IMG/VR virus record: IMGVR_UViG_2541047120_000010
Source: a virus
Lineage: Duplodnaviria; Heunggongvirae; Uroviricota; Caudoviricetes
Length of the DNA: 5,673 nt
Strand: one strand, 5' to 3'
Shown here piece by piece: positions 2,892 through 2,936 of the stretch; positions within the stretch are counted from its first letter, which is position 1; each line of letters begins with the position of its first letter. The translations under genes and the position numbers were made by a program. The notes beneath the pieces were generated by a model. It worked only from the letters and a program-made list of their open reading frames with translations, had not been told where the DNA came from and ran no database searches.

Positions 2892-2936
2892 GCTCTTTAA
2901 ACAACGTCGACTCTCGACTACGTGGCTGAAAAGCCA
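2892..2936 (+). promoter_or_regulatory. nutL: nutL-like N-utilisation site (boxA + spacer hairpin + boxB)
   Basis: GCTCTTTAAACAA (2892-2904) resembles boxA (rrn boxA TGCTCTTTAACAA). GTCGA-ctc-TCGAC mini-hairpin at 2906-2918, then TACG, then TGGCT-GAAA-AGCCA (2923-2936), a 5-bp stem with GAAA loop like boxB. About 40 nt downstream of the predicted pL start and ~100 nt upstream of N. Confidence 0.65.

Follow-up and report, generated by a model that had tools for sequence, protein, structure and literature searches.

What does a boxB hairpin with a true four-base loop imply for the N protein that recognizes it? The question is raised by nutL and nutR, the two nut sites in a 5,673-nt stretch of viral DNA (IMG/VR record IMGVR_UViG_2541047120_000010, referred to here in its whole length as the window), whose boxB elements both carry the loop GAAA. 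N antitermination is the first step of the cascade of N, Q and the late operon that drives lytic growth, and the same cascade drives Shiga-toxin (Stx) expression. Loci that pair an N gene with both nutL and nutR fall into two classes, one with a tetraloop and one with a pentaloop in boxB, each keeping company with its own type of arginine-rich motif in N, and in a set of over 190 loci that carry N, with about 30 different motifs between them, no mixed locus occurs.

Both sites of the window have the same layout, as a preliminary description of this DNA had stated. In full it runs boxA, the pentamer ACAAC, a small hairpin (the spacer hairpin), a TACG linker and a 5-bp boxB with a GAAA loop. The nutL site (2892-2936, plus strand) lies in the PL transcript, between a PL-like promoter on its 5' side and the N gene, which begins about 100 nt further on. 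It consists of boxA GCTCTTTAA (2892-2900), identical to the rrn boxA UGCUCUUUA in eight of nine bases, ACAAC directly 5' of the spacer hairpin (2901-2905), the spacer hairpin GTCGA(CTC)TCGAC (2906-2918), TACG (2919-2922) and the boxB TGGCT(GAAA)AGCCA (2923-2936). The nutR site (242-287, minus strand) lies in the PR transcript just 3' of cro and reads boxA CGCTCTTTG (287-279), TA (278-277), ACAAC (276-272), the spacer hairpin GGAC(ATTC)GTCC (271-260), TACG (259-256) and the boxB TCGCT(GAAA)AGCGA (255-242). The 18-nt core TACGTNGCTGAAAAGCNA is present in exactly two copies in the window, one on each strand, where 0.01 would be expected and none of 200 shuffled sequences reaches two; a repeat search recovers the pair as inverted repeat I2.

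The identification of these elements as nut sites, also made in the preliminary description, is borne out by their position, orientation and duplication and by their homology to the annotated nutL and nutR of phage 933W. There are two sense-orientation copies, on the PL side upstream of N and on the PR side downstream of cro. At both, a boxA-like element stands 5' of boxB (judged against the lambda and rrn references CGCUCUUA and UGCUCUUUA, taken from PMC2724277), and boxB is a short stem with a purine-rich, GNRA-like loop and a U-A closing pair. The N gene itself (3035-3307, plus strand; 90 amino acids) matches Pfam PF25694 N_peptide from residue 1 (E=3.4e-32) and carries the motif MSRKTEFKGTAASRRRARRANLQ within an arginine-rich N-terminus spanning residues 1-26, MSRKTEFKGTAASRRRARRANLQSQE (3035-3112, plus strand). 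The loop is, again as first described, truly four bases long, G-N-R-A on a Watson-Crick closing pair, and thus unlike the loops of lambda (GAAGA or GAAAA) and P22 (GACAA); such a loop would be expected to take the GNRA fold, with a sheared G·A pair.

Loci for comparison were gathered in two ways, by homology of N and by two DNA-pattern scans with TACGNNGCTGAAAAGC and TACGNNGCTGACAAAGC, and the N genes in them were found by the motif M[STA][RK][RK]TxFxG. The pattern scans gave many single chance matches without a complete stem, which the site grammar filtered out, and distinct sequences are counted because many loci are near-identical. In the tetraloop class the loop is GAAA, or once GCAA, which is also a GNRA sequence (46 of 46 distinct sites, at nutL and nutR alike), and it accompanies only the motif RRR[A/E/V][R/H/Q]R[A/S/L]x[L/V]Q. 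More than 20 distinct versions of this motif, among them SRRRARRANLQ in the window and GRRRERRAALQ in phage g341c, sit on N bodies of 90, 107, 108, 115 and 120 amino acids. The pentaloop class has GACAA at every site that fits the hairpin grammar and only the motif RRRE[R/L]LK[A/V][K/Q]A[L/I]A, in nine distinct versions, on an N of 127 amino acids (933W, HK97 and SPN9CC). Aligned with MAFFT, the tetraloop-class motif is two residues shorter than that of the pentaloop class. The ten loci fetched purely by N homology (the window, 933W, HK97, SPN9CC, g341c, phiSTEC1589 and prophages of Citrobacter, Kluyvera, an enterobacterium and Tatumella) all obey this rule. A single nutR backbone, GGAC(ATTC)GTCC-TACG-TCGCT..AGCGA, holds GAAA where N is of the tetraloop class and GACAA where N is of the pentaloop class. 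The proposal that the loop is matched to the arginine-rich motif of N is upheld in this sense: tetraloop and motif class co-occur without exception, as do the pentaloop and the other class.

The rest of the site is conserved in a different manner. Homologous sites lie upstream of N in all relatives, and a hairpin of at least 4 bp abuts TACG in 58 of the 59 distinct nut sites adjoining N homologues, compared with 14% of 8425 other TACG contexts in the same loci. Its stems form families of unrelated sequence (GGAC/GTCC, GTCGA/TCGAC, GATTC(R)/(Y)GAATC, GGCC/GGCC, GGTGA/TCACC and GGACG/TGTCC), with loops of 3-6 nt and stems of 3-6 bp. In an N-padded, hairpin-registered alignment of 36 distinct sites, two-sided changes occur in 8 of the 11 pairs (112 cells), including five of the six helix pairs of the spacer hairpin, and the boxB stem shows compensatory changes as well. 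The covariation score is 0.674, against 0.152 in shuffled alignments (0 of 500 reach 0.674) and at most 0.123 with the partner slid; it counts against these values that the register was set by hairpin detection, so that the 100% pairing is partly by construction, and the comparison of 58/59 with 14% is the independent control. A plain MAFFT alignment of 41 sites was discarded, because the gap for the pentaloop fell at the 3' end and the hairpins' 5' arms no longer lined up.

ACAAC or ACAAT precedes the hairpin in 31 of the 36 aligned sites. TACG is invariant in them, a conservation that is inflated, like that of three of the five stem pairs and of the loop, because many loci were retrieved by pattern scans that fix these positions; a boxB search that did not require TACG still finds it before 197 of 202 boxB-like hairpins upstream of N. 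The boxB stems vary (TGGCT, AGGCT, CGGCT, TGGCC, TCGCT, TAGCT, GCGCT) around a constant loop, the outer two pairs taking several forms (U-A, A-U, C-G, G-C; G-C, C-G, A-U) and the closing pair being U-A in 34 of 36.

A structure kept in this way might be an essential protein-recognition element, the spacer hairpin together with ACAAC and TACG providing a second contact for N or a specific site for NusA. We regard this as unlikely but arguable. In H-19B nutR, the spacer and boxB are protected by N plus NusA/NusG, and the spacer by Rho alone too (PMC3526286). The structure persists while its sequence turns over through at least five stem families, ACAA(C/T) and TACG persist with it, and the hairpin is absent from the nut sites of lambda and P22. 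Set against this, the hairpin varies freely in sequence, loop size and stem length. Moreover, Neely and Friedman, who reportedly gave the original description of the spacer dyad symmetries in H-19B nut sites in 2000, are said to have found that deleting the dyad is nearly harmless and that only disruption of one arm does damage, which suggests a role against misfolding. The spacer hairpin most likely acts as it appears to in H-19B, as a folding insulator that keeps boxB free and as part of a spacer that binds NusA and Rho. A role as a determinant of N specificity is disfavoured: the hairpin accompanies both loop types and so cannot determine loop specificity, and the suggestion that it is an element particular to the tetraloop does not hold.

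The match of loop and motif could also have a simpler origin. If both motifs read any GNRA-like fold, the classes would be interchangeable and their association would reflect descent and linkage rather than co-adaptation, a view that we consider rather improbable. Several facts do weigh against co-adaptation and in favour of this view. The nutL site lies only about 100 nt from the sequence coding for the motif and is inherited with it, so that the coupling at nutL could be plain linkage. A single loop base separates the classes, and, to judge by the GCAA variant, the second loop position tolerates change. P22 and lambda N reportedly overlap in their boxB requirements, as the title of Cocozaki et al. 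2008, cited in PMC8022706, announces, and the two classes may likewise cross-react. In SPN9CC, a member of the pentaloop class, the nutL boxB is imperfect, GCTCC GTCAA CGAGC (about 4383-4397 of locus L006).

What speaks for co-adaptation is nutR. It lies 2-3 kb away across the mosaic immunity genes, which makes linkage a weaker account of its coupling, and yet it always matches the class of N; the shared backbone that occurs with either loop and the lack of any mixed locus point the same way. Of the two couplings, only that of nutR argues for selection. As to SPN9CC, its nutL boxB has a C·C closing mismatch and a GUCAA loop and may be degenerate or a variant, while its nutR boxB reads TCGCT(GACAA)GGCGA with a U·G closing pair. 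A prophage of Tatumella terrea presents a separate case: its N (5001-5324 of locus L099) joins a tetraloop-class motif, MTRRTQFNGSAAGRRRVRRADLQ, to a lambda-type C-terminal body (...IWYSKPGERGITCTGRQKSRGRSIPLV), and its nutL boxB, TGGCC(GAAA)GGCCA, has the only C-G closing pair seen. From this locus, motif and boxB evidently travel together as a module, independent of the rest of N.

Folding of the whole site raises a third alternative. Folded alone, boxB has a free energy of -6.5 kcal/mol at both sites (z-scores of -3.95 for nutL and -3.57 for nutR), and the spacer hairpins have -4.9 kcal/mol at nutL and -5.2 kcal/mol at nutR (z-scores of -2.1 and -2.7). Against the local structure stands the minimum-energy fold of each 61-nt site (2885-2945, plus strand; 295-235, minus strand), where boxA is paired to the loop and 3' arm of boxB, GCUCUUU with AAAAGC(C/G) around the spacer hairpin, and boxB is not formed. 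This arrangement reaches -14.2 kcal/mol at nutL and -17.1 kcal/mol at nutR, lower than the approximately -11.4 and -11.7 kcal/mol of the two separate hairpins, and brings to mind the "alternative NUT RNA structures" named in the title of the H-19B paper. It might represent a functional state that regulates access of N and Nus factors, in which case GAAA would matter as the complement of the CUUU of boxA rather than as a tetraloop. We find this very improbable: its z-scores are only -1.1 and -1.2, many family members without a nutL boxA (933W, g341c) keep boxB, covariation favours the local boxB helix, and local hairpins would form first during transcription. That the sites are not nut sites at all and the real boxB lies elsewhere is effectively refuted by their position, orientation and duplication, by the N homologues that adjoin them in every relative examined and by their homology to the annotated 933W nutL and nutR and g341c NutR; no evidence for another boxB was found, and an Rfam scan (E up to 10), silent either way, returned no nut or boxB family, only chance small-RNA matches elsewhere.

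Taken as a whole, the observations are best explained if both sites work as nutL and nutR in the N antitermination system of this prophage, which we hold to be likely. By homology to lambda and H-19B, nutL would be transcribed from PL and nutR from PR. Each boxB would fold into a 5-bp hairpin with a genuine GNRA tetraloop, GAAA, on a U-A closing pair, to be bound by the N-terminal arginine-rich helix of the 90-amino-acid N (SRRRARRANLQ). Joined by NusA at the spacer and probably by NusB/S10 at the near-consensus boxA, the N-boxB complex would then render RNA polymerase resistant to termination and carry it past the tR1 region and the terminators downstream of N. A caution against this scheme is that it takes over from those relatives the binding of boxB by N, the need for Nus factors and the specificity. 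Within the motif, the change that marks the tetraloop class is that RLKAKALA gives way to the shorter RRAxLQ. This stretch is similar to the lambda N core RRRERRA and does without the hydrophobic continuation, LKAKALA or KLAIE, of the pentaloop classes. As GACAA without its looped-out C is GAAA, the tetraloop corresponds to the bare GNRA scaffold.

This correspondence allows a more speculative step. The extruded base of the lambda loop is reportedly dispensable for binding of N and needed for a NusA-dependent step, a finding attributed to Legault et al. in 1998. Should that be right, a natural and bona fide GNRA class of boxB would have to assemble N and NusA differently, and cross-talk with lambda N or Nun would be possible; we offer this as a doubtful proposal. 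In the lambda N complex, the KH domains of NusA also touch boxB (PMC8632103). The shared core RRR(E/A)RRA may permit cross-reaction with lambda boxB, lambda N or HK022 Nun. If true, the several lambdoid prophages of one Escherichia coli cell, Stx phages among them, would affect one another by antitermination or exclusion cross-talk that has gone unrecognised.

What is new here is the coupling of loop and motif; the nut layout, the spacer hairpin and a predicted new boxB specificity for phage ε34 were already known, and the system is not of a new kind. Neither a natural class of tetraloop boxB sites nor a motif-loop coupling is explicitly described in the literature searched, which left several key subscription papers outside it. 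The system is widespread, as 819 of 5426 complete E. coli genomes carry the nutL-N segment (2860-3310), some in as many as four copies, and the RefSeq (PGAP) records listed label its N a "hypothetical protein". With two N classes whose nut sites are one loop base apart on a near-identical backbone, these phages provide a natural experiment in peptide-RNA specificity. It bears on the contribution of the looped-out boxB base and on the insulation of the N proteins of co-resident prophages, and its interest is mainly for specialists.

The N gene is read from the ATG at 3035, which follows the Shine-Dalgarno sequence GGGAGGA (3024-3030), and homologues begin at the same methionine. A longer, annotated N of 114 amino acids from the ATG at 2963 was rejected, as the Pfam boundary, the Shine-Dalgarno sequence and the homologue starts all favour ATG 3035; the ATG at 2963 is, in addition, inside a strong leader hairpin. 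This hairpin (2951-3022, plus strand) lies between nutL and the Shine-Dalgarno sequence of N, with arms at 2962-2977 and 2994-3009, ATG 2963 being in the 5' arm; the 104-nt leader (2937-3040) folds with -39.5 kcal/mol (z-score -4.3). In position it corresponds to the lambda N-leader hairpin, cleaved by RNase III, that controls N translation.

The correspondence of motif residues to the N proteins of P22 and lambda was drawn by eye only. A phmmer search of N against PDB sequences (E up to 10) gave no match, the N peptides of solved structure being too short and too divergent. The window N keeps R3, R15 and R18, residues at which the H-19B N mutations R3H, R15C/P and R18P abolish antitermination (PMC3526286). 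Behind N, in another frame and overlapping its stop codon (AGATGA), lies a relic, MTCVGRQKMKLGSKPLI* (3305-3358, plus strand), that is similar to the C-terminus of lambda N, GITCSGRQKIKGKSIPLI. It is also found behind the N of 933W, where its frame is open further upstream, and none follows the N of P22, g341c or phiSTEC1589. It is probably a fossil of the 3' end of a lambda- or phi21-type N, left where mosaic segments join, though it may instead yield a frameshift product.

The surroundings of the two sites are those of a lambdoid immunity region. Over 81% of its length, the window agrees at 99.5-99.7% identity with the immunity and early regions of Stx-converting phages, among them 2851, 1717, Stx2-II, the PA series and the Stx1-converting phage of Morioka V526; it is the immunity region of an Stx phage of the 2851/1717/Stx2-II type. 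From left to right it holds cII (truncated by the left window end), nutR, cro, PR/OR, cI, two unnamed open reading frames, PL, nutL, N and the early-left genes to bet. The cro-like helix-turn-helix gene (298-513, minus strand) has its stop codon 11 nt before the start of nutR, and cI occupies 630-1283 (plus strand). A PL-like promoter found by consensus scan (2817-2845, plus strand; TTGACC, 17 nt, TACTAT) would transcribe nutL and N. An operator repeat at PL is common to the PR region (inverted repeat I1), and public records annotate operators and a promoter here.

Two intrinsic-terminator-like sites on the plus strand, one 3' of N (3606-3637) and another further along the PL operon (3752-3783), are putative targets of N antitermination. 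On the other side, folding finds a conserved hairpin (195-212, minus strand) 30 nt 3' of nutR, near-identical in 933W, that matches the position of the H-19B nutR/tR1 region (PMC3526286) and may likewise be a termination target. The 19% of the window that the closest phages leave uncovered is due to a segment of 1057 bp (3780-4836, plus strand) that has no counterpart in phage 2851, which holds a 506-bp ea10/ssb segment instead. This segment includes a Glu/Ala/Lys-rich repetitive open reading frame of 322-340 amino acids (3739 or 3793 to 4761) with no Pfam match. Between cI and PL lies an open reading frame of 173 amino acids (1785-2306, plus strand). Phage 2851 labels it a "conserved hypothetical protein" and the Stx1-converting phage, as ORF b63, a "hypothetical protein"; its only Pfam match, to an integrase SAM-like domain, is sub-threshold (E=0.047). 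Further downstream, a 40-amino-acid open reading frame (2480-2602) is followed by a strong terminator-like hairpin (2608-2629, with a T-run to 2639, plus strand), and together the 173-amino-acid frame and this downstream hairpin resemble a prophage-expressed cargo gene 3' of cI.

A comparison with known systems places these sites. The preliminary description called their architecture unusual, which the relatives do not bear out: the succession of boxA, spacer hairpin, TACG and boxB is the H-19B/933W/HK97 layout and not a new one. The window sites form a tetraloop class within the H-19B/933W nut family, which is defined by ACAA(C/T), a structure-conserved spacer hairpin and TACG, all ahead of boxB; the boxB stem of the family has 5 bp and a U-A closing pair. 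Phage 933W (NC_000924) carries annotated nutL and nutR. Its nutR, ...CACAAT-GGAC(ATTC)GTCC-TACG-TCGCT(GACAA)AGCGA, agrees with that of the window base for base in the spacer hairpin, TACG and boxB stem, and nearly so in the downstream tR1/cII leader; in a four-way alignment from the nutR spacer hairpin to cII, the two differ by three substitutions and one loop C (GA-AA against GACAA). Its nutL has the hairpin GATTCG(AATA)TGAATC, TACG and the boxB GCGCT(GACAA)AGCGC.

The N protein of 933W belongs to the same Pfam family and shares the head MxR(R/K)TxFxG...RRR and the C-terminal LPNVALYAAGYRKSKQLTAR. It differs from the window N in length (127 against 90 amino acids, with 40% identity) and in its motif, RRRERLKAKALA in place of RRRARRANLQ, and its boxB loop is GACAA (5 nt) where the window has GAAA (4 nt). 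The two also differ in boxA, for 933W has none at nutL and CGCTATTTT at nutR, while the window has a near-consensus boxA at both sites. The boxA of 933W nutR (808-853 of locus L003, minus strand) shows a C-to-A change like that of the lambda boxA16 mutation, and in nutL of the 933W type (4269-4335 of L003, plus strand) and of the g341c type, an upstream inverted repeat, TCACC-AGGGC-GGTGA, takes the place of boxA. H-19B-type sites are said, by Neely and Friedman in 2000, to be independent of boxA and NusB/S10. The near-consensus boxA at both window sites hints at the opposite for the window, a use of NusB/S10. The arginine-rich motif of H-19B N, quoted as "12RSRRRER18" in PMC3526286, is carried by 933W N; the window resembles that family in its spacer hairpin and in its homology to the annotated 933W sites (ACAAY, hairpin, TACG and boxB stem), and departs from it in having GAAA rather than GACAA at both sites and SRRRARRANLQ rather than ..RSRRRERLKAKALA.. 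in N.

The P22 gp24/boxB pair (GACAA or GAUAA pentaloop; PDB 1A4T) is similar in that its loop adopts a GNRA-like fold, with the C of GACAA looping outwards and touching the peptide (PMC12550061), and GAAA is GACAA minus that base. P22 also shares the N C-terminal ALYAAGHRKSKQITAR and a homologous PL leader upstream of boxA. It differs in its motif, TRRHERRRKLAIE, and in its spacer, CTTCGATGAT, which is unstructured, with neither hairpin nor TACG; the window has no GAYAA pentaloop with a looped-out third base. Lambda, whose GAAGA or GAAAA loop takes a GNRA fold with the fourth base extruded, shares the boxA 5' of boxB and the 5-bp stem with U-A closing and a GNRA-like loop. Its motif core RRRERRA compares with RRRARRA in the window and is identical to the core of the g341c/ε34 type. 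The differences are its five-base GNRNA loop, a spacer that, read from the genome, is short, unstructured and without TACG, and a Trp18 that has no counterpart in the window N; the N bodies are unrelated, the exception being the Tatumella relative.

A further likeness is to ε34 and g341c, which share the motif class (GRRRERRAALQ in g341c) and the tetraloop boxB. In g341c, the annotation "Putative NutR (similar to NutR Epsilon34)" falls on the 14-mer TCGCTGAAAAGCGA, the same as the window nutR boxB; g341c differs in its 933W-like N body of 120 amino acids and in a nutL without boxA and with a GATTCA/TGAATC hairpin. For ε34, Villafane et al. 2008 (PMC2629481) found the first 27 residues of N to be divergent and predicted "a novel BoxB specificity", a prediction drawn, in the passages concerned, from the protein N-terminus only and without mention of the loop. 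The distinct mode of N/boxB recognition put forward for the window comes close to that prediction: its match of loop and motif stands, the spacer hairpin falls away as a part of it, and "distinct mode" is probably too strong a term.

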